39,660 bases of DNA from a virus (IMGVR_UViG_3300032250_000070:64001-103660); one strand, 5' to 3'. Positions 4,715-18,146 are shown, numbered from the stretch's first letter. Notes: generated by a model not told the origin, from the sequence alone. Numbers and translations are program-made.

Positions 4715-4843
4715 ATGGCAAAAGCAAAAGGAGCATCAAATGCTAAGAAAATTACCTTTGGAAAACGCAAAGGGGGTAAGGCACAAAAGTTTAAAGGTCC
4801 TAAGGACAAAGCAACTAAGCCTTACAACAGACAGGGAAGATAA
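4715..4843 (+). CDS. Small basic protein, 42 aa
   Basis: Not in the track. MAKAKGASNAKKITFGKRKGGKAQKFKGPKDKATKPYNRQGR; aacATGGC start context as in neighbouring genes. Confidence 0.7.
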   Translation: MAKAKGASNAKKITFGKRKGGKAQKFKGPKDKATKPYNRQGR

Positions 4844-4948: not shown

Positions 4949-6268
4949 ATGCCCACTTTTATAAAACCAGGATTTTGGAGAGAGCTTTGTAACCCATGTG
5001 ATGGGTACGAAGGTTGGTTAAATCTAACTGATTTAATTAATGAAGGTGCAGCTGGAACAGCTGGTACCTCTGGCACCAGTGGTGCTAAAGGTGATCAAGG
5101 AATACAAGGTGTACAAGGTGTACAAGGAATCCAAGGCATTCAAGGACCTCAAGGTATAGGTGGTTCATCTGGAACTGCTGGTACATCTGGTGTCAATGGT
5201 GTTGCTGGAGATAAGTATCAAACAACATCTTCTACAACATTTACATTAGGTACTGGTGGCACAATCACTGTAGGTACAGGACTAGCATATACAGTGGCTC
5301 AAGATATATTGATAGCCTATGATGTTAATAATCATCAGGTTTCAATGGTTACGTCATACAATCCTGCTACAGGAGCGTTGGTATTTGGTACTCCTTCTGA
5401 AACTACAGGATCAGGCACATATAGCTTATGGAGTGTAAACCTTAATGGAGCAGCAGGTGGAGATGGTACTTCTGGTACATCAGGACTTTCTGGTTCTTCT
5501 GGAAGCAATGGTGCACAAGGTATCCAAGGTATACAGGGTATACAGGGTGTACAAGGTGAACAGGGTGCACAAGGTTTAGCAGGTACCAGTGGAACAAGTG
5601 GTAGCTCAGGAACATCTGGTGTTAGTGGCACTAGTGGTACGAATGGTAGCTCAGGAACAGCAGCAACAGCAGGAACAAGTGGTAACACAGGAACTTCAGG
5701 TTTAACTGGAACTAGTGGAACATCAGGAACTTCTCCTGTACTTCCTTTACCTGTAGTGTTTGGATTATATTCTCAAACAGCTAACAGTGCTATTGTTACT
5801 AATACAACAACTGAATCAACAATTATTGGTCCTGGTGTTGGTACATTAAGTGTACCTGCTAATGGATTTGCTGTTGGTGATTCCTTTAGAGCAGTTTTTG
5901 GTGGTGTTGTGAATGCTAATAATAATGAAACTATTAGAATTAGAATGAGAACAGGATCTGTTGTTCTTCTAGATAGTGGCATTCAAAACCTTGGAAGTGC
6001 TATTATAGATGATGTGTGGAGTCTAAATGTTGATTTTACAATTAGACAAATTGGAACTGCTGGTGTAGCATCTATTGTATCATTAGGATCATTCCATTAC
6101 ACAAAGACTAACAATGCCTCTATTCAAGGATTTGGATTTAATGTAATAAATAGTACAACATTCAATACAACAATTAACAATACATTAGATGTTACAGTTC
6201 AATGGGGAACTGCTAGCACAGGAAACAATATATATAGCGACATTTTTATATTAAATAAAACATATTAA
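4949..6268 (+). CDS. Collagen-like fibre/decoration protein
   Basis: G-x-Q runs ([13 protein letters not shown]) flanked by G-T-S runs, in two blocks separated by a small beta domain; C-terminal globular beta domain. Confidence 0.8.
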
Positions 6269-6272
6269 TAAC

Positions 6273-7481
6273 ATGGCAATACCTTCTAGACAAATAGGCT
6301 GGGGCACTACAGACAACCTATTATGGCAAATATCCAAGCAAATGGAAACATTAACTAAAGTTACATACAATTCTGGTGGTGGTGGAGGTGGAATAACCTC
6401 TATTGGTTTAAGTATGCCACCAGCATATAGTGTTCCTAATTCTCCTTTAATATCAAATGGCACACTTAATGTTGTTGCTAATGGTGTTGCAAGTCAATAC
6501 GTTAGAGGTGATGGAACGCTTGCAGATTTCCCAAACATAGGTGGAGGAGGTGGTCAAGTATTCTTCTTTAATGGTGGTACATCACAAGGTGTAATAGGTG
6601 GAAACACATATTATGAATTAGGTGAAACTGCTGCCACTGGTCCTAGTGCAGATTTTTCAGTGACTGGAGATGGTTTTTTAGCTAGATTCATCACTGATGT
6701 AAATAGTCCAAACGAGACGTTAATACCAAGTGGTAATTGGAATTTTAGAATGTATTTTAGTGCATCCTCTGCTGGTGGATCACCAACTATTATAGCTACA
6801 ATACAAAAATATGATGGGGCAACATTTACTACGATTGCAACATCCACTGGGGAGGTAATCACTGGTGGAACATCAGAAGATTTGTATAATTTTTCTGCCT
6901 CTTTTGCAGATACAGCCTTAGCTTCTACAGATAGAATTGCAATAACATTTACATTATCTAATTCTGATGGAAGAACTGTTACGTTATATACAGAAGGTTC
7001 TAATATATCTGAGGTGGTAACAACATTTTCAACTGGTATAAGCTCACTTAATGGCTTAACTGCTACTTCTCAAAACTTTGCAACAGGTGTTACTGGCACT
7101 GATTTTAATATTGTATCAAGTGAAGACACTCATACATTTAATATACCTACAGCATCAGCCACCGCAAGAGGGGTTATAACAAGTGCAATGTATAATACAA
7201 TTACATATAATGTAATTACCACTACAATAAACTACTTGGCTTTACAAAATGACTCTGTTATTTTAGCAGATGCAACTGGAGGAGCTATAACAATCACTTT
7301 ACCTAGTGCTATTGGAGCATATAAACCAGTGACAGTAAAAAGAATCAACGCTGGTGCAAATGCTGTGAATATTAACACTGTATCAAGTCAAACCTTTGAT
7401 GGTTCTACAACTGGAAGTCTTAATGTTCAAAACCAATCATTAACATTTGCTTCAAATGGTGCGAATTGGTTTATAGTATAA
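6273..7481 (+). CDS. Putative tail fibre/virion structural protein
   Basis: Gly linkers separating beta-rich Thr/Ser domains. C-terminal ILADATGGAITITLPSA...VTVKRIN...FDG...LTFASNGANWFIV resembles phage fibre tip domains. Confidence 0.6.
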   Translation: MAIPSRQIGWGTTDNLLWQISKQMETLTKVTYNSGGGGGGITSIGLSMPPAYSVPNSPLISNGTLNVVANGVASQYVRGDGTLADFPNIGGGGGQVFFFNGGTSQGVIGGNTYYELGETAATGPSADFSVTGDGFLARFITDVNSPNETLIPSGNWNFRMYFSASSAGGSPTIIATIQKYDGATFTTIATSTGEVITGGTSEDLYNFSASFADTALASTDRIAITFTLSNSDGRTVTLYTEGSNISEVVTTFSTGISSLNGLTATSQNFATGVTGTDFNIVSSEDTHTFNIPTASATARGVITSAMYNTITYNVITTTINYLALQNDSVILADATGGAITITLPSAIGAYKPVTVKRINAGANAVNINTVSSQTFDGSTTGSLNVQNQSLTFASNGANWFIV

Positions 7482-7510
7482 ACAATAAAAAACAATAAAA
7501 ATAATAAAAG

Positions 7511-8860
7511 ATGGCTTATAATCCTCAAAATCCAAATGGTCAAGCGACCTCAGCAAACAGTAGTCCAGTTGTTATAGCAAGTAACCAAAGTGCTGTACCA
7601 GTAAGTGGAACTGTAGCTGTATCAGGTACAACAGCAGTGAGTGGTACAGTAACTGCAAACGCAGGAACTAACTTAAACACTTCTGCCTTAGCACTAGAAA
7701 ATGGTAATATATCTAGTATTAATACAAAAACACCAGCGTTAGGTTCTGCAGCAACATCTGCAAGTACACCAATGGTTCAAGCTATTGACACAGCAAGTGG
7801 TGGTATTAGCGTTCTAAACTTAAATCAAACTGGAACAGCAACAAATAATAGTGCTGTAGAAATTGTTGTTAACAGTGCTAGTTCAGTAACAATAGGGGTG
7901 AGTGGAACATTTGTTGCCACTTTATCTGTACAAGTGAGTACAGATGGAACAAACTGGACCACTCTTACATATAATTCACTTATAAACGTTGTTAATGGTG
8001 GTGCCCAAGCTAACATTACTGCTCCTGGTGTGTATACACTTCAAACAGCTGGATGGTTAAGAATGAGAATCACTTCTTCAGCATATACATCTGGTACTGC
8101 TACAATATCATTAAGAGCCGTTGTTGCTCCTTCTATTGTTGCAATCAATAGCCCATTACCATCTGGAACTAACGCAATAGGTAGTACTGCTTTAAACCAA
8201 ACAAATCTTGTTAATGATGTAGCATCATCAGCTATTACAGGCACTACAACAACATCAGCATTCACTCCAACTACTGGAGTTGCTTATTCTGTTAGTATTC
8301 CAGTTACCGCATCTAGTGGAACTTTTATAGGATTAGATGTTAATATTGAAGAATCAGATGATAATGGTAATAACTGGTTTGTTGTATATTCATTTCCTAG
8401 AATCACTGCTAATGGTACATACCGTTCTCCAATGCTAACTTTAAGAGGTAATAGAATAAGATATGTACAAACAGTTTCAGGTACTTCTCCTTCATTTACA
8501 AGATCAATTAATAGACTTCAGTCAAATGCAATTCCTCAAAATCCAATTACACAATTGATTGATAGAAGTATAAATTTAACAACACTTAATAGCACAACTC
8601 CAATTCTAAACGTTCAAAATTCTACAAATCTTCAAGTGGCCGTATATATTAATACAGCTACCACTGCTCCTAGACTTATGTTTGAGGGTAGTAATGATAA
8701 TGGAGCGACTTGGTTTGACATTACAGGAGTAATTACTATTGCTGGTGTAACTATACTTGAAAATACAGCAAATACTAACGTACAATTAGTAAGGGCAAGA
8801 AATACTCAAAATGGTTCAAACGTTGGATCAGGTTATTATGTAATACTGAAAGGATTTTAA
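7511..8860 (+). CDS. Putative virion structural protein with three repeated beta-sandwich domains
   Basis: Repeated [QEG]-x-S-x-D-x-G-x-x-W units (VQVSTDGTNW, IEESDDNGNNW, FEGSNDNGATW), each followed by an RxR strand. Confidence 0.6.
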   Translation: MAYNPQNPNGQATSANSSPVVIASNQSAVPVSGTVAVSGTTAVSGTVTANAGTNLNTSALALENGNISSINTKTPALGSAATSASTPMVQAIDTASGGISVLNLNQTGTATNNSAVEIVVNSASSVTIGVSGTFVATLSVQVSTDGTNWTTLTYNSLINVVNGGAQANITAPGVYTLQTAGWLRMRITSSAYTSGTATISLRAVVAPSIVAINSPLPSGTNAIGSTALNQTNLVNDVASSAITGTTTTSAFTPTTGVAYSVSIPVTASSGTFIGLDVNIEESDDNGNNWFVVYSFPRITANGTYRSPMLTLRGNRIRYVQTVSGTSPSFTRSINRLQSNAIPQNPITQLIDRSINLTTLNSTTPILNVQNSTNLQVAVYINTATTAPRLMFEGSNDNGATWFDITGVITIAGVTILENTANTNVQLVRARNTQNGSNVGSGYYVILKGF

Positions 8861-8869
8861 TAAAAATAT

Positions 8870-9241
8870 ATGAGTCTAACTGCTTACGTAAGATATGACA
8901 ATAGGGGAAGGCTTGTTCCAGGCGGACCAATAGTCACCTCAGTTAAGCCCAAGGTGGGTGACTGGGTAGCTATTAGTGATGTGCTTGTTACAAATACTGC
9001 TCCAAACTACAAACTACGTGCGTTTGTTAGATATATAAATAATATAGGTCGTCAAAGCAAAGATAACAAATATGTAGCTGGTAGCTTGATCCTTCAACAC
9101 AATGAACCCCAAGATGGTAATTGGAAAGAGATTTACTTCATAAAACCTTGTGACTCTTGTAACCCCACTGGTGATTTTATATTAGCAGAGAACGGTGACC
9201 CCATCATAACAGAAAACAATAACAATTTAATTGTAGAATAA
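8870..9241 (+). CDS. Small structural/adaptor protein with two copies of the AYVRYD...KPKVGxW module
   Basis: LTAYVRYDNRGRLV..KPKVGDW and LRAFVRY..GSLILQHNEPQDGNWKEI; acidic tail DFILAENGDPIITENNNNLIVE. Confidence 0.7.
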   Translation: MSLTAYVRYDNRGRLVPGGPIVTSVKPKVGDWVAISDVLVTNTAPNYKLRAFVRYINNIGRQSKDNKYVAGSLILQHNEPQDGNWKEIYFIKPCDSCNPTGDFILAENGDPIITENNNNLIVE

Positions 9242-9242
9242 C

Positions 9243-12200
9243 ATGGCAAATATAAAAATTAGTGCATTACCAAACGCTGCTGCATTGACAGGAACTGAAC
9301 AAGTTCCTGTAGTTCAAGGTGGTGCAACAGTAAAAACAACAGCTCAAGACATTGCTAATTTAGGTGGTGGAGGTGGCGGTGGTGTAATGGCTGCTGGTAG
9401 TGGAATTTGTTCAATTGTAGGTAGTGGTTGTTACAATAACGCTTGTGGGGATTATTCTGCTGCATTAAGTGGTCAATGTAACAATATAACTGCAAGCGGA
9501 GCTAATGCTAAACATAACGTAATAAGTGGTGGTTTTTGTAACAAAATTAGTGGAACTTATAATAGTTATTCATTCATAGGTGGTGGACAATGTAATACAG
9601 CTTGTGGAACACGTTCAGTTGTTGTAGGTGGTAGATGTAACACAATTAGTTTTAGTGGATATTATTCATTTATTGGTAGTGGATTTCAAAACACAGTATC
9701 AGCATATTACGGAGTAGTAGTGGGTGGATATTCAAACACAGCTTGTGGAATACGTTCATTTATAGGTGGTGGTTGTGCTAACACAGTCAGTGGATATGCT
9801 TCTTTTGTAGGTGGTGGTAGAGATAACACAGCTAGTGGACAAGACTCATTTATAGGTGGTGGTAGATTTAATATAGCAAGTGGATATTATTCATTTATTG
9901 GTGGTGGTAGCTGCAATACTGCACAATGTGATTATACTGGAGTATTTGGATGTAACTTATGTAATACACAAGCTTGCACATTCATGGCTAACAACTTTGT
10001 TGTTGGTGACTTTGTAGGTTGTGATGGATGTTCTTTAGCTTTAGATGCTAATGGAAAAATGTGTATTGGTTCTGGTGGTGGTGGAAGTTCTCCTATGGTT
10101 GTTGGTAGTGGTGGTACTGGTTCAATTCAAGGTAATGGGTCAGACAATAATGCTTGTGGAAATTATTCATTTGTTGGAGGTGGTTTTTATAATACAGCTT
10201 GTGGTGAGACTTCATTCATTGGCGGTGGAGGTTTTAACACAGCTAGTGGAACTTATTCAACAATTAGTGGTGGGTATATTAATACAGCTTGTGGACGTAA
10301 TTCAACAATTAGTGGTGGATGTTGTAACAATATAACTGCAAGTGGAGCTTATATTTGTAATAATGTAATAACTGGTGGTGGTTGTAATACAATTAGTGGA
10401 GCTTATGCTACAAGTGCATTTATAGGTGGTGGTAGTGTTAATAATGCTTGTGGTAGTTATTCAGCTATTGTTGGTGGAACTTGTAATACAGCTAGTGGTA
10501 ATTATTCATTTGTAGGTGGTGGTGAATGTAACACAGCTTGTGGACCTACTTCATTTGTAGGTGGTGGAAATTGTAATACAGCCAGTGGGTATTATTCAGC
10601 TATTGGTGGTGGTCAAAATAACATAGCTAGTGGTAATTATTCATTTGTAGGTGGTGGATTTGGTAATACAGCTAGTGGATATTATTCAACAATAAGTGGT
10701 GGACAAGGTAACATAGCTTGTGGTACTTGTTCATTTGTAGGTGGTGGTGAAGCTAATAAGGCTTGTGGTGCTTATTCTTTTGTTGGAGCTGGTAAATCTA
10801 ACACAGCTGTTATTGATTATTCAACAATTGGTGGTGGTGAATGTAATGCTACTTGTGCTAGTCATTCAACAATTAGTGGAGGTTTTACTAACACAGCTTG
10901 TGGTATTGCTTCATTTATAGGTGGAGGTTATAGTAATATAGCTAGTGGAGTTAATTCAACTATTTCTGGTGGTTATTGTAATACAGCCAGTGCATATTAC
11001 TCATCTGTAGGTGGTGGATATTGTAACAAGGCTTGTGGTGTTGGTTCATTTGTAGGAGGGGGATGTGTTAATACAGCTTGTTGTATTGCTTCATCTGTTG
11101 GTGGTGGTATCTGTAATAGATCTTGTGGACGTAATTCAACTATCAGTGGTGGTTATGTTAATATTGCTAGCGGATGTTCTTCAACTGTAGGGGGTGGTGG
11201 TACCAACACAGCTAGCGGTTGTTATTCAACTATTAGTGGAGGATATCGTAGTACATCTTCAGGATATGTATCATTTGTTGGTGGTGGTAGAAATAATGTT
11301 TCAACTGCTGACTTCTCATTTGTTGGAGGAGGACACTTTAACACAGTTTTAGGCTGTGGAGGAGGTGTTGTTGCTGGTGTTACTAACACTGCTTGTGGAT
11401 GTAATTCTACAATTAGTGGTGGATATGTTAACACAGCTATTGCTGACCAATCATTTATTGGTGGTGGTATTTGTAATACAACTTGTGGGGTTAGTTCATT
11501 TATTGGAGGTGGTGGTGGTAACACAGTTTGTGGTCTTGATTCATTTGTAGGTGCTGGTTTTACTAATACAGTGGGTGCAGGTTGCTCATTCATAGGTGGT
11601 GGACAATGTAACACTGTAAGTAGTATTTATTCATTTGTGGGTGGTGGTCTATGTAACGCAGTTTCTACACAACAGTCATCTGTACTTGGAGGATGTAATA
11701 ATAGAATTATTTCTGCTGGTTCTCATTCAACAGTTGTTGGAGGTATAAATAATACTATTTGTGGTTGTTTTTCAACAGTTAGTGGTGATGCTAATACTAT
11801 TTGTAGTGGTTCTTGTTATTCATCAGCATTTGGTTGTAACTTAACAGCTAGTGCTCCTCGTACATTCTATGTAAACAACATGTGTGTATGTGGTACATTA
11901 AGTAAGACATCTGGTTCATTCAAGATTCCTCATCCAGATCCAATCAAAGCAGAAGCAGGTAAGTTTCTAAAGCATTCATTCGTAGAATCACCTACAGCTG
12001 GAGATAACATTTACAGATTTAGTGTTACAACATCAAATTGTAGTGCATCTATTGAACTTCCAGACTATTACAGCTTATTAAACACTAATGACCACGTATA
12101 TGTTAATGCTAAGAAGCATTTAGGATATGGATTTGGTATTGTTAATGACGAACAAACTCGTATTGACATTACAACTAATACTGATGGTGATTATAACATA

Positions 12201-12278
12201 CTTTTAATTGGTACAAGAAAAGATAAACTAGCTTTAGATGCTTGGAATGGCACAGAAGTTAATGACGTAGAGAAGTAA
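9243..12278 (+). CDS. Gly/Cys-rich repeat fibre (beta-roll/beta-helix) with C-terminal chaperone-like domain
   Basis: N-terminal IKISALP..LTGTEQVPVVQGG typical of aquatic phage fibres; about 50 imperfect 15-aa repeats; C-terminal FKIPHPDP...LKHSFVESP...IELPDYY. Confidence 0.8.
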   Translation: MANIKISALPNAAALTGTEQVPVVQGGATVKTTAQDIANLGGGGGGGVMAAGSGICSIVGSGCYNNACGDYSAALSGQCNNITASGANAKHNVISGGFCNKISGTYNSYSFIGGGQCNTACGTRSVVVGGRCNTISFSGYYSFIGSGFQNTVSAYYGVVVGGYSNTACGIRSFIGGGCANTVSGYASFVGGGRDNTASGQDSFIGGGRFNIASGYYSFIGGGSCNTAQCDYTGVFGCNLCNTQACTFMANNFVVGDFVGCDGCSLALDANGKMCIGSGGGGSSPMVVGSGGTGSIQGNGSDNNACGNYSFVGGGFYNTACGETSFIGGGGFNTASGTYSTISGGYINTACGRNSTISGGCCNNITASGAYICNNVITGGGCNTISGAYATSAFIGGGSVNNACGSYSAIVGGTCNTASGNYSFVGGGECNTACGPTSFVGGGNCNTASGYYSAIGGGQNNIASGNYSFVGGGFGNTASGYYSTISGGQGNIACGTCSFVGGGEANKACGAYSFVGAGKSNTAVIDYSTIGGGECNATCASHSTISGGFTNTACGIASFIGGGYSNIASGVNSTISGGYCNTASAYYSSVGGGYCNKACGVGSFVGGGCVNTACCIASSVGGGICNRSCGRNSTISGGYVNIASGCSSTVGGGGTNTASGCYSTISGGYRSTSSGYVSFVGGGRNNVSTADFSFVGGGHFNTVLGCGGGVVAGVTNTACGCNSTISGGYVNTAIADQSFIGGGICNTTCGVSSFIGGGGGNTVCGLDSFVGAGFTNTVGAGCSFIGGGQCNTVSSIYSFVGGGLCNAVSTQQSSVLGGCNNRIISAGSHSTVVGGINNTICGCFSTVSGDANTICSGSCYSSAFGCNLTASAPRTFYVNNMCVCGTLSKTSGSFKIPHPDPIKAEAGKFLKHSFVESPTAGDNIYRFSVTTSNCSASIELPDYYSLLNTNDHVYVNAKKHLGYGFGIVNDEQTRIDITTNTDGDYNILLIGTRKDKLALDAWNGTEVNDVEK
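9400..11900 (+). repeat. Coding tandem repeat, about 45 nt / 15 aa, consensus NTA[SC]GxxS[FT][IV]GGGxx
   Basis: e.g. aatacagctagtggtaattattcatttgtaggtggtgg, recurring with variation. Two blocks (about 9400-9990 and 10130-11890). Confidence 0.9.
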
Positions 12279-12304
12279 TAAAACAAAACCAACAAAAACT
12301 ACAT

Positions 12305-13321
12305 ATGAAGGATCTTAAATTTATCTGTGCTCAGCCAGATGATGTCTACTACACATGGCAAGTGCATCTATGGTTAGAAAGCTTGAAGAAGCTTGGGCAC
12401 TCAGACAAGGCAATTGTTTTAGTGTACACACCTAGTTTTAGGGAATACAATGGCAAATGGGAGAAGATAATGGAACTATATCCAGAAGCAAAGTTTGCTT
12501 TCTACAAGGATACAGGAGACGTTAGTCAGTATTTAGGAGTTTATATTCCTATTTTACGTCCATATTGCTTAATGAGATATTTTCAGGACAATCCTGATAT
12601 GGTGACCAAAGCAGTGTTTTACTGTGATTGTGATGTAATCTTCACAGAAAAGTTTGATGTAGATAAATTTAAAGATGATGATGTAAACTACTTGTCTGAT
12701 ACAAATAGTTATATCAACGCTTCATATTTTGATAGTAAGTTAAGAGATGTTCTACCAAGTAAGTTGGAAGAATACAAAACTAGAGATGTTTTAGCTGAGC
12801 TTACAAGCTTAGTGGGTATAACAAGAGAAATAGCTGAGGCTAACAATGATCATTCAGGAGGGGCTCAATACTTCCTTAAGAACATAGATGCTAATTTCTG
12901 GAAGAAGGTGATGAATGATTGTGTACTTATTCGTACCTATCTTCAGAACATAAATAGAGAGTTCTTTAAAGATGAGAACGCAGGGTTCCAAAGCTGGTGT
13001 GCAGACATGTGGGCTGTACTATGGAACGTTTGGCTTAGAGAACAAGAAGCAAAGAACATTCCTGAAATGGAATTCTGTTGGTCTTCAGATGCTATAGAGA
13101 AGCTGGATAGAACAACAATATTACATAACGCAGGTATTACAGGACAGAACACAATGGGCTATCCTGCTTTCTACAAAGGAGCATACCACACTGGTAAAGA
13201 TCCTTTTCTAGATACACACGTACTAAAAGTGCTTAGTGATGAGACTTCTAAAAAATATGCTAATCATTACTACACTCAACGACTAATAGAAATAAAAAAC
13301 AAGTATAATTTAAAATATTAA
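12305..13321 (+). CDS. GT-A fold glycosyltransferase, resembling peptidyl-Ser/Hyp O-glycosyltransferases (GT95/GT96-like)
   Basis: YYTWQVHLWLESL near the N-terminus, DxD in FYCDCDVIF, GGAQYF, WCADMWAVLW, ILHNAG. Confidence 0.6.
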   Translation: MKDLKFICAQPDDVYYTWQVHLWLESLKKLGHSDKAIVLVYTPSFREYNGKWEKIMELYPEAKFAFYKDTGDVSQYLGVYIPILRPYCLMRYFQDNPDMVTKAVFYCDCDVIFTEKFDVDKFKDDDVNYLSDTNSYINASYFDSKLRDVLPSKLEEYKTRDVLAELTSLVGITREIAEANNDHSGGAQYFLKNIDANFWKKVMNDCVLIRTYLQNINREFFKDENAGFQSWCADMWAVLWNVWLREQEAKNIPEMEFCWSSDAIEKLDRTTILHNAGITGQNTMGYPAFYKGAYHTGKDPFLDTHVLKVLSDETSKKYANHYYTQRLIEIKNKYNLKY

Positions 13322-13323
13322 TT

Positions 13324-14022
13324 ATGGCCCAAAACACAAATCGCCCTCTCAAAGCTTATGTACGCTTTGATGGTACTGGAAGAATCGTTCCAAGCAGCCT
13401 AATCTTAAGAAGAAAGAAACCAAAAGTGGGTAGATGGGTAGAGATACCAGCTTATGAATGCTGCAATTATGTTCCTACATCTACAACTACTACTACTAGT
13501 TCTAGCACAAGTAGTACAACAACAACTACTACAACAGCCGCAAGTTATACAATAGGTCAATCAGCATTAGGTGGTAAAATTGCGTATATTCTACAACCAG
13601 GTGATCCAGGATACAATGCTAGTGTACAACATGGATTAGTGGCTACAGTTGCAGATATTTCTACAGGTGCAGCATGGGGATGTGCAGGTACATTAATTAC
13701 AGGAGCTGATGGTCTGGCAATAGGTACTGGTAATCAAAATACAATAGATATATTGGCTCAGTGTCCAACAGCAGGAATTGCTGCAAGAATTTGTAGTGAT
13801 TTAATAGAAGGTGGATATAATGACTGGTATTTACCAAGTATTGATGAACTACAACAACTATACAATAATAGAGTGGCTATTGGTGGTTTTACTGGTAACG
13901 AATATTGTAGTTCTACAGAGTTTGACATTGACTATAATTGGGGTCTGGATTTCATAACTGACACTAGTGGTGCTTATCAAAAGGACCAATCACTATATGT
14001 TCGTGCAATAAGAAGTTTCTAA
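13324..14022 (+). CDS. Shared N-module + poly-Thr/Ser linker + DUF1566 (Lcl C-terminal-like) domain
   Basis: WYLPSIDELQQLY and C-terminal YVRAIRSF; linker TSTTTTTSSSTSSTTTTTT. Confidence 0.8.
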   Translation: MAQNTNRPLKAYVRFDGTGRIVPSSLILRRKKPKVGRWVEIPAYECCNYVPTSTTTTTSSSTSSTTTTTTTAASYTIGQSALGGKIAYILQPGDPGYNASVQHGLVATVADISTGAAWGCAGTLITGADGLAIGTGNQNTIDILAQCPTAGIAARICSDLIEGGYNDWYLPSIDELQQLYNNRVAIGGFTGNEYCSSTEFDIDYNWGLDFITDTSGAYQKDQSLYVRAIRSF

Positions 14023-14503
14023 AATAATTAAATAAAATAGAGCACACATCTTACGGTGTGCTCTTTATAAAAAATATAAAATGGCAAATAGCAATAATAG
14101 ATTAAAAGCATACGTTCGTTATGATGGTACAGGACGTGTCATAGCAGGTAGTTTGATCTTACAAAGATTCAAACCAAAGGTTGGTAACTGGCAAGAGATT
14201 GATGCAAATGAGTGTTGTAACTATGTTCCAACTACCACTACTACCACAACATCTGGAGGAATTTATACAATAGGCCAAGCTGCATTAGGTGGTATCATTG
14301 CGTATATTAATGGTGGTGGAACTTCAGGTACTTCAGGTTTAGTGGCTGCAGTTGCAGATTTTCCTAGTGGATATATTCAGTGGGGATGTAGAGGTACTGA
14401 AATAGTAACAGGAACTGCAATAGGTACTGGTAATCAAAACACTATTGATATACTTGCTGAGTGTCCAACAGCAGGAATTGCTGCAAGAATTTGTAGTGAT
14501 TTA
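13760..14503 (+). repeat. 44-bp exact direct repeat (13760-13803 = 14460-14503) between the DUF1566 paralogues
   Basis: AGTGTCCAACAGCAGGAATTGCTGCAAGAATTTGTAGTGATTTA occurs twice, 700 bp apart; flanks differ at synonymous sites. Confidence 0.9.
14039..14066 (+). terminator. Hairpin between the two DUF1566 genes
   Basis: AGAGCACAC-atcttacg-GTGTGCTCT followed by only TT(T); weak terminator or other signal. Confidence 0.55.
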
Positions 14504-14734
14504 GTTGAGGGAGGTTATAATGATTGGTACCTACCGAGTCAAGATGAGTTAAATGCTTTATATATAAATAGAGTGGCTATTGGTGGTTTTGTTGATGACA
14601 GCTATTGGAGTTCTTCACAACCCCAAGATATTTTTGGACAAGACGCAGCATTTGTTCAGGATTTCACAGATGGTAGTCAAGGGCAAGGGGGAAAAATTAC
14701 TGGACGCCTTGTTCGTGCAGTGAGAAGTTTCTAA
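14081..14734 (+). CDS. Paralogue: shared N-module + poly-Thr linker + DUF1566 domain
   Basis: WYLPSQDELNALY, YWSSS, LVRAVRSF. Confidence 0.8.
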   Translation: MANSNNRLKAYVRYDGTGRVIAGSLILQRFKPKVGNWQEIDANECCNYVPTTTTTTTSGGIYTIGQAALGGIIAYINGGGTSGTSGLVAAVADFPSGYIQWGCRGTEIVTGTAIGTGNQNTIDILAECPTAGIAARICSDLVEGGYNDWYLPSQDELNALYINRVAIGGFVDDSYWSSSQPQDIFGQDAAFVQDFTDGSQGQGGKITGRLVRAVRSF

Positions 14735-14758
14735 AATAATCAACTTTAAAAAAATAAA

Positions 14759-15166
14759 ATGGCACTTAAATCATTATTCCCTGATGAGATGATGAAATCA
14801 GGAGAATTAAACTTGGAAACAATAGCTGGGAAGCTTACATATTTCCATGAGCAATTACATCTATTACATTGGCAGACAAAGAGTTATGCTGAGCACCAAG
14901 CTCTAGGAGGATTGTATGATTATGTACATGATTTCAAAGATGGTGTGATAGAAAAAATCATGGGATATACAGGCAAACGTCCTGCTCCATATAAGATAGA
15001 ACCATTAAGTGGTGCAGATTCTAATTCAGTTGTCACAGCACTAATGGACTTCGCTAGTAACTTAAAAGCATATGGTGAGACTAATAAATTTCATGATATA
15101 GCTAACTTAGCTGATGCTCTATCTGGAGAAGCTGCTAAAGTACGCTACTTATTAACCTTGTCTTAA
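14759..15166 (+). CDS. Ferritin/Dps-like protein (DUF5856-like)
   Basis: HLLHWQTKSYAEHQALGGLYD..DGVIE resembles the Dps ferroxidase-site pattern; ends YLLTLS. Confidence 0.75.
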   Translation: MALKSLFPDEMMKSGELNLETIAGKLTYFHEQLHLLHWQTKSYAEHQALGGLYDYVHDFKDGVIEKIMGYTGKRPAPYKIEPLSGADSNSVVTALMDFASNLKAYGETNKFHDIANLADALSGEAAKVRYLLTLS

Positions 15167-15804
15167 TGCCTGTTATTTATAAAATAACGTCTCCTACAAA
15201 TAAAATTTATATTGGTCAATCTTGGAATTTTAATTCTAGGATTGGTTTTTATAAAACTTATAAATGTAAAAGACAAGTTAAATTATACAACTCTTTATTA
15301 AAACATAGTTACGAGTCTCATAAAGTAGAAGTTATTTGTTCACTACCAGAAGACATTACACAAGACTATTTAGATCTTTATGAGTTAACATATTGGCAAT
15401 TTTATAAAGACTGTAATTTTGATATGTTAAATATTAGAGAACCTGGTAGAGCTGGTAGACTTTCAGAAGAAACTAAAGTTAAAATTAGAAACAAATTAAA
15501 AGGAAGACCTCTTGATATAAAACACAAAGAGAATGTAATTAATGCTTTATATGGTAGAAGGTTTTCTGAAGAATCTAAGAAAAAAATTGGGGATTCTAAT
15601 AGAGGAATAAACAATGGTATGTTTGGCAGATCTGGTAACTTGAACCCTATGTCAAAACAGGTATTAGATTTATCAAATAATAATATTTTTACATGTGTTA
15701 GAGAAGCTGCAGAAAGTTTTGGTATAAGTAAACAGATATTAATAAATAAACTAAATGGACGTACTAAAAACAATACCACTTTAATATATGTGTCAAACAG
15801 TTAG
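15166..15804 (+). mobile_element. Free-standing GIY-YIG homing endonuclease with NUMOD3-type repeats
   Basis: VIYKITSPTNKIYIGQS; SEETKVKIRNKLKG and SEESKKKIGDSNRG; C-terminal HTH (VREAAESFGIS); more AT-rich than flanks. Confidence 0.9.
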
Positions 15805-16084
15805 AAAAGGATTTTTACGTGTATTAACAGATAATGAAGATACTTACTTTAGGCATTTAAATGGTATAATTGACTCAGTTGATGAACTATCTACGTTGGA
15901 GATTACTAAGACTCCTCACTCGTATCACTTTAGATTAGCACCTTCACTGCCTATGTACAATGAAATGTTGCTAGAAGAAATCTTAAAGTTTCATAATATG
16001 TTCAAAATTAGACTAAACCTGTCTAAAAGTATCAAAAGTTCTGCAACTATAACGTTCGAAATAAATTTGGCAGATACGCAATAA
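15788..16084 (+). CDS. Hypothetical protein
   Basis: 98-aa ORF filling the gap and overlapping the GIY-YIG stop. Confidence 0.65.
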   Translation: MCQTVRKGFLRVLTDNEDTYFRHLNGIIDSVDELSTLEITKTPHSYHFRLAPSLPMYNEMLLEEILKFHNMFKIRLNLSKSIKSSATITFEINLADTQ

Positions 16085-16097
16085 ATGCATATCTTTG
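16066..16097 (+). promoter_or_regulatory. Bacteroidota promoter for the basic-protein operon
   Basis: TTTG (16066-16069), N20, TATCTTTG (16090-16097). Confidence 0.85.
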
Positions 16098-16121
16098 TGA
16101 CTAAACTAAAAATATAAATAT

Positions 16122-16391
16122 ATGTCAGAGATTATTGATTTACAACAACAACCACAAGGTCCTAAGTTTGATCCAAACAAGAAGTACACATGGAACACAG
16201 ACGCTACGTTTGTATTAGATGGTGGTGACTTTGGAATGTTATTGAACGCACTACGTGCAGTTATTAATACAAAGGAAGCACAAACTATTTTATTAGCTAA
16301 ACAAGCAGGAGATGTTCTTGAAGAGACATTGGCTGCTGCTGTTGAAGCTGGTGTAGTTGTAGAGCTTCCAGAAAACAAAAACAGTTTATAA
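16122..16391 (+). CDS. Small acidic hypothetical protein
   Basis: First ORF after the promoter; TAATG-coupled to the next gene. Confidence 0.75.
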   Translation: MSEIIDLQQQPQGPKFDPNKKYTWNTDATFVLDGGDFGMLLNALRAVINTKEAQTILLAKQAGDVLEETLAAAVEAGVVVELPENKNSL

Positions 16392-16927
16392 TGGCAACAA
16401 TTAAAAAAGCTCAAGCTGGTATTAAGAAATCAGCTTCTAAAATGGTTCCAGGTGAAATGACTGGTAAAATGTACAAGAAGTCTGAAATAGATGATATTGG
16501 TAGAAAGCAAGCTGCTGAGTTAGACAAGTCTGGTGTATTTGGTAAAGCTGCTATGGCTAAGAAGAAAGCTCCTAAAGCTCAAGATGGTCTTAAAACACGT
16601 CAATATAAAAGACTTGGTAGAATTGATGAAAAAAATTCTGCAAGAGCTGAGCGAGTAGCTGATCGTATGAACACAAAAGCAAGTCGTGTTGAACGTGGCA
16701 AGGAGATTGCAAATCCTCCTATAAGAGTTGAGAGATTTGCTATGGACATATCAGAAAGAATGAAAAACTCTAAAATGAAAGCAGGTGGTATGCTAAAGCG
16801 TGCTGATGGTTCTTATTCTAAAAGAGGATTATGGGATAATTTGAGAGCTGCTAAAGGATCTGGAAAGAAGCCTACAGCTGCTATGTTGAAACAAGAAAAG
16901 AAAATAAAAGCTAAAACTAAAAAATAA
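16391..16927 (+). CDS. Lys/Ala-rich basic protein 1
   Basis: KKAQAG, KAQDG, MKAGG; C-terminal GLWDNLRAAKGSGKKPT. Confidence 0.8.
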   Translation: MATIKKAQAGIKKSASKMVPGEMTGKMYKKSEIDDIGRKQAAELDKSGVFGKAAMAKKKAPKAQDGLKTRQYKRLGRIDEKNSARAERVADRMNTKASRVERGKEIANPPIRVERFAMDISERMKNSKMKAGGMLKRADGSYSKRGLWDNLRAAKGSGKKPTAAMLKQEKKIKAKTKK

Positions 16928-17271
16928 TGGCAACTGTAAAAAAAGACAGAATGGGTAGTCTTTCAGGAATGAAAGCTTCTGATAAGCGTGTAGGTCCTAT
17001 TGACCCAATGGGTGCTTGGACAAAAGTTCAAGAAGCTACCTTAGCAGGTGCTAAGGGCAAAGCTAAGTTAACTAAAGATAAAGAACTTGGTGCTACTAAG
17101 ATGGCAAAGAATGGACGTTCTGAAATGCAATTTGGTCTTAACAAAAAGCAAGCAGCTACAAAAGAAGTGAATCCAGCAAGTTTCAGAAAAGCAGCATTAA
17201 AGCGTGAATCTGAAATCATAGAAAAGCGTAGTGGTGAAATGGCTCCTAAGTTAAAATCTAAAAAGAAGTAA
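16927..17271 (+). CDS. Lys/Ala-rich basic protein 2
   Basis: Coupled ORF, K/R-rich, contains AKNG. Confidence 0.8.
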   Translation: MATVKKDRMGSLSGMKASDKRVGPIDPMGAWTKVQEATLAGAKGKAKLTKDKELGATKMAKNGRSEMQFGLNKKQAATKEVNPASFRKAALKRESEIIEKRSGEMAPKLKSKKK

Positions 17272-17275
17272 CATC

Positions 17276-17698
17276 ATGGCAAAGGCTATTAAGAAGGCAC
17301 AAGGTGGTTTTGCAGCTGATCTTTTAAAGAAGAAAGCTGCCTCTGATACAACTAGAATGTATGACAGAGAAGAATTTATTAATAATATTAATAAAGGACT
17401 TAAAACTCCAAATGCTAAATCTAGTTCTAGTAAAGGAACTAAGTCTTATAAATACATAAGTCAAAGTGGTGATACTACTGCTATGAGTAAAGGAGACTTT
17501 GAAAAAAGATTTACTAAACAAAAAAGTGGTGGTAGTACTGCTAAAGATGGTAAGTGGATGCAGAAAGTATCTAAGTCTATTAAGGCTAGAGGTACAGAAG
17601 GCAAATGTACACCTATCACTAAACCTGGTTGTACAGGAAAGGCCAAAGCATTGGCTAAGACATTCAAAAAGATAGCTGCTAAGCGTAAAGCTAAATAA
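17276..17698 (+). CDS. Lys/Ala-rich basic protein 3
   Basis: KKAQGG, QKSGG, AKDG; C-terminal KWMQK...KAKALAKTFKK. Confidence 0.8.
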   Translation: MAKAIKKAQGGFAADLLKKKAASDTTRMYDREEFINNINKGLKTPNAKSSSSKGTKSYKYISQSGDTTAMSKGDFEKRFTKQKSGGSTAKDGKWMQKVSKSIKARGTEGKCTPITKPGCTGKAKALAKTFKKIAAKRKAK

Positions 17699-17699
17699 C

Positions 17700-18146
17700 A
17701 TGGCTAGAATACCTAAGACAAAAGTTTACAACCCACAGAAAGCAGAAGCTTACGTAGGTAAGAGAGTCCTTAAAAATGGGGACACTCTAAGTCCTATCAA
17801 AGGATCTATCACTCCTGTTCCTAATGGTCATCTAATTAAAAAAGATGGTACATCATTAAAGAATGGTGGTAAGACACCTGCTTGGCAACGTAAAGCAGGT
17901 AAAAATCCTGAAGGTGGATTGAATGCTAAAGGTGTAGCAAGCTATAGAGCTGCTAATCCTGGAAGCAAACTAAAGACAGCTGTTACTACTAAACCATCAA
18001 AGCTTAAAGCTGGTTCTAAAACAGCAGGTAGACGTAAGTCTTTCTGTTCTAGAATGTCAGGTATGAAAAAGAAACTTACATCTGCTAAGACAGCTAATGA
18101 TCCTAATAGCAGAATTAATAAATCACTTCGTAAATGGAATTGTTAA
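17700..18146 (+). CDS. Basic protein 4 with DUF6321-like domain
   Basis: TPAWQRKAGKNPEGGLNAKG...RRKSFCSRMSGMKKKLTSAKTANDPNSRINKSLRKWNC. Confidence 0.8.
   Translation: MARIPKTKVYNPQKAEAYVGKRVLKNGDTLSPIKGSITPVPNGHLIKKDGTSLKNGGKTPAWQRKAGKNPEGGLNAKGVASYRAANPGSKLKTAVTTKPSKLKAGSKTAGRRKSFCSRMSGMKKKLTSAKTANDPNSRINKSLRKWNC

Follow-up and report, generated by a model that had tools for sequence, protein, structure and literature searches.

Within a 39,660-nucleotide stretch of DNA (hereafter the window, bases 64001-103660 of the 103,660-bp IMG/VR virus record IMGVR_UViG_3300032250_000070), we found that three genes encode proteins carrying a previously unnamed domain of ~45 amino acids (aa), here termed module A. 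Positions are counted from the first base of the window unless given as genome positions. The domain family, its architecture, its gene neighborhood, the shuffling of its payloads and the fold class of a neighboring enzyme are established here. Based on these findings, we propose, with a probability of roughly 55%, that module A is the virion-docking foot of glycosylated stalks, with a capsid hexon pocket as the favored site.

Module A has the motif LKAYVRYDGxGR…KPKVGxWxEI…CC and is present in four full copies, all on the + strand: two in the open reading frame (ORF) at 8870-9241 (residues ~2-46 and ~46-99) and one at the start of each of the ORFs 13324-14022 (residues 1-51) and 14081-14734 (residues 1-50). 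When the 60-aa start of ORF 14081 was compared with the whole 103,660-bp genome by tblastn, exactly four places were found, corresponding to the query itself (E = 6e-40), ORF 13324 (E = 1.5e-26) and the two halves of ORF 8870 (E = 2e-8 and 1.2e-6). A module profile, built from the genome copies together with metagenomic relatives, retrieved the identical four copies from all six-frame ORFs of the genome, with a next-best E of 0.5. Given these E values and the agreement between the two scans, the repeat is real and far beyond chance. A preliminary description of this DNA had placed the motif at the start of two DUF1566 proteins (13324 and 14081) and twice in ORF 8870, and these positions and the significant alignment of the copies (E = 1.5e-26 to 1.2e-6 beyond the self match) were borne out. 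It had also counted a fourth gene, a collagen-like protein at 4949 thought to begin with a truncated module. The string is present, but the module profile is silent there even at E 100. Since this start is a separate conserved tag (tag D, below), three genes carry module A, not four.

The three proteins differ in what follows the module. In ORF 8870, the first module (8870..9007, + strand, tblastn E = 2e-8 against the ORF 14081 module) lacks the Cys pair, and the second (9008..9166, + strand, E = 1.2e-6, also seen in the alignments) has a 7-residue insertion and ends in C..C. The protein closes with the acidic tail that the preliminary description had noted (9167..9241, + strand, GDFI..E.GD.IITE...NLI.E), which is predicted to be disordered (predicted local distance difference test score, pLDDT, <50). 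The A-I or 'first' paralogue (13324..13476, + strand), whose positional orthologues in 63 loci form one group, is followed by a 20-residue poly-Thr/Ser linker (13477..13536, + strand, mixed ACN/AGY/TCN codons) and an Lcl_C (formerly DUF1566) payload (13645..14013, + strand), which scored 43.8 bits against a cut-off of 34.9 (Pfam PF07603) and partially matched NCBIfam adhesin_Lcl. The A-II or 'second' paralogue (14081..14230, + strand, LILQRFKPKVGNW.EIDANECC type), which shares 80-100% identity with the N-termini of hundreds of metagenomic proteins, has a short poly-Thr linker (14231..14254, + strand) and an Lcl_C payload (14480..14725, + strand) scoring 37.9 bits against the same 34.9. The two linkers were read directly from the sequence, and the profile scores uphold the DUF1566 identity proposed earlier for both payloads after the linker.

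The tail of ORF 8870 also ends a 288-aa tandem-A protein with a payload (L012:6178-7044), as well as the proteins P0126 and L058 (L058:9992-10219). In the L012 version the modules are followed by poly-Thr, a payload, poly-Thr and the matching acidic tail, and ORF 8870 is the payload-less version of such a protein. The tail is kept with or without a payload, on tandem-module proteins and on one single-module protein, and may be a second docking peptide.

Module A belongs to a large metagenomic family. With residues 1-60 of ORF 14081 as the query against a 90%-identity database, 645 proteins of 119-380 aa were retrieved; in the best 120 of the 645, the module was 80-100% identical and the C-termini following it were wholly different. 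A profile search, exhaustive over 1.84 billion cluster representatives (50% identity clusters), yielded no fewer than 1000 clusters at E <= 0.001, of which 658 reached E <= 1e-10; in almost every one, the module occupies residues 1-50. We took a census of architecture in the top 150 representatives: a single module is present in 120 and a tandem pair in 30, CC closes the module in 137, and a poly-Thr/Ser linker follows it in most. Several tandem forms are without cysteines. Payloads of at least 40 residues, present in 132 representatives, form 51 clusters unrelated to one another, including 35 singletons, and regions after the module reach 772 residues and include folded leucine-rich repeat (LRR), PQQ and Lcl_C domains. 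Wherever Pfam recognized the payloads of these metagenomic proteins, they were of binding or adhesin type: Lcl_C, DUF285 and BspA-type LRR, Fib_succ_major, ice-binding-like, Big_9 and cadherin, PKD, ConA-like lectin and beta-propeller. Many further payloads are Cys-rich domains without a name. The earlier view that the payloads are interchangeable therefore holds, given ~51 unrelated clusters among 132 representatives and the occurrence of payloads on other tags as well. Linkers ranged from 14 to 68 residues among proteins with a near-identical foot and payload. We rejected a slippage microsatellite as the origin of the poly-Thr linkers, as their DNA has mixed codons and weak repeats only.

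The preliminary description did not recognize the module, and neither did our searches: no characterized domain was matched in Pfam, PHROGs, NCBIfam or PDB sequences, with a best E of 0.47 for the module-A profile against PDB sequences, and ORF 8870 is without a family in the first three. Matches to phrog_4245 begin only at residues 36 and 49. An AlphaFold2 model of ORF 8870, calculated with 31 tandem-module sequences as input, gave a pLDDT of ~90 over both modules and a predicted TM-score (pTM) of 0.65, with three short strands per module and a disordered tail. Structure searches with the module-A model against the PDB gave no significant match to any solved chain. The model thus predicts module A to be an autonomous all-beta domain of ~45 residues without known relatives. 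Among 50,697 phage records, a collection that may lack near relatives, neither blastn with 7 kb nor tblastn with ORF 8870 or with the 51-aa module revealed an isolated phage carrying the module, and a scan of 185,579 cellular species genomes with one peptide pattern gave no relative.

Module A is one of at least four N-terminal tag types (A, B, C and D) in the same gene cassette, and payloads are exchanged between them. Tag D (~30 aa, M[PA]TFIK[PA]GFW..LC.PC.GY.GWLNLD) begins the collagen-like fiber at 4949..6268 (+ strand, tag at 4949-5045), which matches Pfam Collagen (5.7e-21) and PHROG tail-fiber families; it occurs on 17 distinct proteins in related phages, several without cysteines. Tag B (MAIPSRQIGWGT..NLLWQISKQ), found in 64 of 80 related loci, begins a 402-aa protein with a Gly linker (6273..7481, + strand, tag at 6273-6390). 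Tag C (MAN.KIS.L...PVVQG..T.KTT), which recurs in relatives, begins a 1011-aa Cys-rich beta-roll fiber with a Gly linker (9243..12278, + strand, tag at 9243-9380; Pfam LbR_Ice_bind, 32 bits against a cut-off of 30). Tags B, C and D each are followed by a Gly, Thr or collagen linker. Among tagged proteins, six of 54 payload clusters occur with more than one tag type. For tags A and B, the best payload-sharing pair shows 53% identity across 191 aa (E = 7e-58); for tags B and D, it shows 79% across 265 aa (E = 3e-112). Because payloads are common to A and B and to B and D, we regard the tags as interchangeable addresses.

To define the gene neighborhood, we used 80 IMG/VR loci fetched with the module profile, in which the complete-looking contigs are 86-119 kb. 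The gene for a 338-aa GT-A glycosyltransferase-like protein, here GT338 (12305..13321 in the window, + strand), is present in 75 of the 80 loci and lies directly upstream of A genes in 63, a constant partner that the preliminary description had not mentioned. A DUF5856 gene likewise is present in 75, directly 3´ of the A genes (in the window at 14759..15166, + strand, Pfam PF19174, 1.9e-13, the downstream boundary of the cassette). The exact order GT338-A-A-DUF5856 was observed in 63 of the 80 loci, usually preceded by a tag-B fiber and then a 45-55-aa protein consisting of tag B and poly-Thr. These mini-proteins are directly upstream of GT338 in most relatives (e.g. L009:7607-8489 and L012:5043-8185), and identical synteny was found in other sequence sources.

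The first and second A genes represent two paralogue lineages, present as an ordered pair in the 63 loci. In a quick tree (49 columns, 148 distinct rows, many unresolved forks), the 44 distinct 'first' modules all grouped together, a single clade held 38 of the 45 'second' modules, and the labels were much more strongly clustered than after shuffling. The A-I sequence (RRKKPKVG[KR]W..EIPAYECC) is more basic than that of A-II (QRFKPKVGNW.EIDANECC). A correspondence of the two tandem halves to A-I and A-II was not supported: in the quick tree, the first halves join A-II with long branches, whereas the second halves group separately. Docking to the virion remains plausible in our analysis, but with two lineages occurring as an ordered pair and with tandem forms, the 'one virion site' of the preliminary description is unlikely.

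Unexpectedly, most of these proteins are without a payload. Payload-less forms, of at most 100 residues and comprising the foot, CC and a poly-Thr tail, account for 44 of the 63 first genes and 34 of the 63 second genes, with tails that are 61% Thr and have a median length of 25. The picture of a stalk bearing a payload thus stands as to the variety of payloads, but the payload is optional. Of 77 payload-less proteins, 76 have no cysteines besides the CC pair, so that cross-linking of chains by this pair is a reasonable reading of the sequences.

The lineage also can be followed through its capsid. Searching with the capsid protein identified relatives on no fewer than 599 IMG/VR contigs. The module is present in all four of the capsid-defined records that are at least 90% complete, so the A genes are close to core in the lineage. 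While the capsid protein (genome 9116-10669) is 96-99% identical in these best 80 of at least 599 contigs (L099-L178), the fiber cassettes of the same phages contain different numbers of genes and different payloads. The shell of the particle is held constant among these phages and its surface equipment is hypervariable.

The enzyme encoded next to the A genes belongs to a large, unannotated family of 2155 clusters. Its AlphaFold2 model (pLDDT 89.3, pTM 0.88) gave 220 PDB matches at E <= 1e-3 with Foldseek, and the top listed matches all are GT-A proteins: the UGGT catalytic domain, glycogenin and GTA/GTB. A D108-x-D110 motif is invariant in 27 homologues. By its model, GT338 thus is a GT-A fold protein with a DxD motif. 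The top Swiss-Prot structural relatives are the Arabidopsis peptidyl-Ser alpha-galactosyltransferase SGT1 (E = 1.6e-9, TM-score 0.59) and the hydroxyproline O-arabinosyltransferases (HPATs) HPAT1-3, RDN and PLENTY (TM-score 0.57-0.60, almost full length), with E values from 1.6e-9 to 4e-6 for SGT1 and the HPATs together. SGT1 and the HPATs glycosylate extended, repetitive stalks rich in Ser and hydroxyproline. They are the best structural matches of GT338, yet sequence identity is 12-14%, they are eukaryotic (plant or algal) Golgi enzymes, and the putative acceptor here is Thr. GT338 had no Pfam hit at E <= 0.01, HPAT (PF23452) included, and 10% of the members of a neighboring ESM Atlas cluster carry PF23452. 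That GT338 O-glycosylates the adjacent poly-Thr tails is a well-motivated inference.

Virion attachment, its site, glycosylation and disulfide stapling are putative, and the nearest precedent for docking comes from known head fibers. ΦcrAss001 has two, gp21 (HFT, 97 aa, a trimer) and gp29 (HFD, 122 aa, a dimer), which dock through residues 1-38 and 1-58, respectively, in capsid pockets at hexon centers; the docking domains have no known fold, and most crassvirus groups are without homologues (PMC10172136, Bayfield et al., 2023). In the model we propose, module-A proteins would be made in the cytoplasm late in infection. Cytoplasmic synthesis is suggested by the lack of a signal peptide: neither a signal peptide nor a lipobox was seen on inspection of the module-A N-termini (MANSNNRLKAYVRYDG and similar), which are polar and without a hydrophobic stretch, and on this basis we rejected a secreted or lipoprotein adhesin. 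The proteins consist of a foot, Cys-Cys, a poly-Thr/Ser stalk of 8 to ~70 residues and an optional distal binding domain. While still in the cytoplasm, the stalk most likely would receive O-linked sugars from the GT-A enzyme whose gene lies just upstream, and the foot then would plug it into a fixed site on the virion, for which we favor the pocket at capsid hexon centers, as for gp21 and gp29. A-I and A-II might occupy two different sites or pair with each other, and the CC pair could staple neighboring chains once they are released into oxidizing water. Payloads would be exchanged by recombination between foot A and the three other N-terminal tags of the cassette. The other cassette members, which are collagen-like or PHROG tail-fiber proteins, support this model, as do the poly-Thr arms on proteins of the main structural block and the outcome of a phmmer search, in which no homologue of gp21 or gp29 was found in this genome. 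A fuller version, which we offer only tentatively and consider doubtful as a whole, is a virion 'glycocalyx' of foot, Cys-Cys and poly-Thr proteins with HPAT/SGT1-like O-glycosylation, two kinds of hexon pocket, and tips swapped among four tags, which would amount to a mucin-like, modular surface display of purely phage origin.

Several observations weigh against the docking-foot model. The head-fiber comparison is an analogy, as there is no sequence similarity to gp21 or gp29 and no significant match to a solved structure: the module profile gave E >= 0.45 for all ΦcrAss001 proteins by hmmsearch, and hhalign of module A with gp29 gave a probability of 0.1. Module-A proteins are putative virion components, and no isolate in the phage collection carries the module. 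Glycosylation is deduced from the fold of GT338 and the position of its gene. The module-A genes lie outside the main head-tail block, in a glycosyltransferase-rich region, and most family members are without a distal domain, which is unusual for an adhesin fiber.

If the stalks do dock, the tail is another conceivable place. Module A might sit at the fiber hub or on another fiber, making the A proteins side branches of a branched tail-fiber system like that of phages with several receptor-binding proteins. The cassette is shared with collagen-like and PHROG tail-fiber proteins, and tag C of the adjacent 1011-aa fiber weakly matches the ΦcrAss001 tail fiber gp22, which docks in the tail hub via residues 1-26 and bears further fiber proteins (PMC10172136). 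An N-terminal anchor with a swappable specificity domain also is the classic design of receptor-binding proteins (PMC8262889). Most A proteins, however, have 60-100 aa and no binding domain, which would be odd for receptor-binding branches, and two small paralogues better match two head-fiber species, so we consider tail docking unlikely. Alternatively, the module could be a dimer or oligomer domain stapled by CC that multimerizes the stalks, with attachment through the acidic tail or the payload. The tandem modules in 30 of the 150 representatives, the whole-chain pTM of 0.65 for ORF 8870 despite its disordered tail, the joint occurrence of two paralogues, and CC as the sole cysteines of 76 of the 77 payload-less proteins, which suggests intermolecular bonds, all are consistent with self-association. 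A complex prediction for A-I and A-II scored 0.03, although the predictor left the isolated modules unfolded (pLDDT ~50), making this score uninformative on pairing. Self-association as the principal function nevertheless appears very improbable, as payload-less foot and poly-Thr proteins would be left with nothing to attach by and cysteines are lost in several tandem forms; it is also compatible with the docking-foot model and may be part of it.

A different possibility is that the module serves the enzyme rather than the virion, bringing the poly-Thr tail to GT338 in the manner of a leader, with products that are soluble or loosely associated glycoproteins. In 63 loci the GT338 gene immediately precedes the two A genes, A proteins have nothing universally in common beyond the module, CC and poly-Thr, and a highly conserved N-terminus with a variable remainder resembles leader/core systems. 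Yet a mini-protein of poly-Thr and the unrelated tag B also flanks GT338, and poly-Thr arms are present on structural proteins without the module; any action of GT338 on poly-Thr would thus be independent of module A. An address also is a better fit than a leader for the tandem modules, the two conserved paralogue lineages and the folded payloads, which extend for up to 772 residues after the module. Since tag B with poly-Thr adjoins GT338, and since the poly-Thr arms in the structural block are without a foot, we regard the tags as addresses more readily than as handles for the enzyme, a role that we consider rather improbable. A precursor of the leader/core type made by ribosomally synthesized and post-translationally modified peptide (RiPP) systems was rejected, given post-module regions of up to 772 residues with folded domains and neighbors that are a GT-A enzyme and DUF5856, with no RiPP enzyme.

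The surrounding genome is that of a crAss-like podovirus of an abundant aquatic lineage, with a portal matching that of ΦcrAss001 (E = 8.5e-33). Genome positions 2.5-60 kb form a + strand structural block encoding a terminase (phrog_6681), the 860-aa portal (phrog_6547), a 517-aa major head protein (phrog_11589), collagen-like fibers and giant proteins of 1338, 1666, 1839 and 3655 aa. Three proteins of the main structural block, upstream of the window, contain poly-Thr/Ser runs (genome 12580-13740, 18729-19355 and 22904-28423). One, of 386 aa and encoded near the capsid genes, has a Thr tail at its C-terminus; another, of 208 aa, has poly-Thr between an N-domain and a Cys-rich domain; and the 1839-aa protein contains five such runs. 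The module-A genes are in a second + strand block, 3´ of a GH19 endolysin gene, in the order tag-D collagen fiber (4949), tag-B protein (6273), a 449-aa protein (7511), the tandem-module protein (8870), the 1011-aa beta-roll fiber (9243), the 338-aa protein (12305), the two module and Lcl_C proteins, and DUF5856.

Further features of this block and its counterparts were noted. Just 3´ of the lysis genes is a very basic 40-42-aa protein (..FGKRK.GKA.KFKGPKDK.TKPYNRQG.; window 4715-4843 and L009:7376-7498), which is conserved in relatives. Residues 12-37 of ORF 9243 in tag C (window 9276-9353) match residues 29-54 of gp22 with 42% identity over 26 aa, a weak similarity (E = 4e-4 in a 23-sequence database); the 1011-aa Cys-rich protein is a possible hub-docked fiber, given that gp22 itself inserts into the tail hub. 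The cassettes of relatives are surrounded by sugar genes (L009:1-4415 and 14735-18132; L012:11124-13167), including GT1, GT9, several GT2 and Gly_transf_sug, along with 2-oxoglutarate-Fe(II) oxygenases, an adenosine 5´-phosphosulfate kinase-like protein and methyltransferases, which suggests a larger phage-encoded glycan pathway.

If the docking-foot model is correct, a very abundant group of environmental phages would carry a coat of mucin-like glycoprotein 'hairs' bearing exchangeable binding tips. This would bear on phage adhesion to particles, hosts and polysaccharide gels and on resistance to grazing, enzymes and aggregation. It also would name head-fiber candidates for the crassvirus groups that are without gp21 and gp29, a gap stated for these phages (PMC10172136). 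As a 45-residue address tag tolerating more than 50 unrelated payloads, module A would be a natural display scaffold, and GT338 would be a candidate cytoplasmic protein O-glycosyltransferase for poly-Thr acceptors.

Individual elements of this design are known from other phages. T4 Hoc and other capsid decoration proteins are non-essential, with one capsid-binding part and outward-facing binding domains. In contrast to module A, the capsid-binding domain of Hoc is C-terminal and its display repeats are Ig-like, and Hoc is without a Thr stalk, paired paralogues or a linked glycosyltransferase. For mycobacteriophage Che8 and its relatives, phage-encoded glycosyltransferases were reported to glycosylate virion proteins (Freeman et al., 2023, as described in PMC11256854). 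According to that account, other enzymes and hosts are involved and the capsid proteins themselves are glycosylated rather than foot-and-stalk proteins, with the modification demonstrated there and putative here. The receptor-binding proteins (RBPs) of Klebsiella phages of the KP32/KP34 type and E. coli tailspikes combine a conserved N-terminal anchor with horizontally exchanged C-terminal specificity modules (PMC8262889, PMC10408124). As for module A, a conserved N-terminal module carries swapped C-termini and several anchored proteins occur per phage. Those anchors, however, are bigger domains of known families that bear enzymatic tailspikes, whereas module A has 45 residues, is unrelated, has a mucin-like linker and in most copies is without a specificity domain.

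The closest parallel is with the head fibers gp21 and gp29, for which capsid binding has been demonstrated, whereas for the module-A proteins it is putative. The module-A proteins differ in having a CC pair, a long poly-Thr stalk, usually no distal domain, tandem forms and a link to a glycosyltransferase gene. Both sets, nevertheless, are small proteins of crAss-like phages with a short N-terminal domain and two species, and disulfides are documented in the ΦcrAss001 virion (PMC10172136). In gp21 and gp29 a small distal binding domain follows the docking domain, and the module-A design is similar, a resemblance rather than family membership. The gp29 gene adjoins lysis and tail-fiber genes in ΦcrAss001, and the A genes are placed likewise here.

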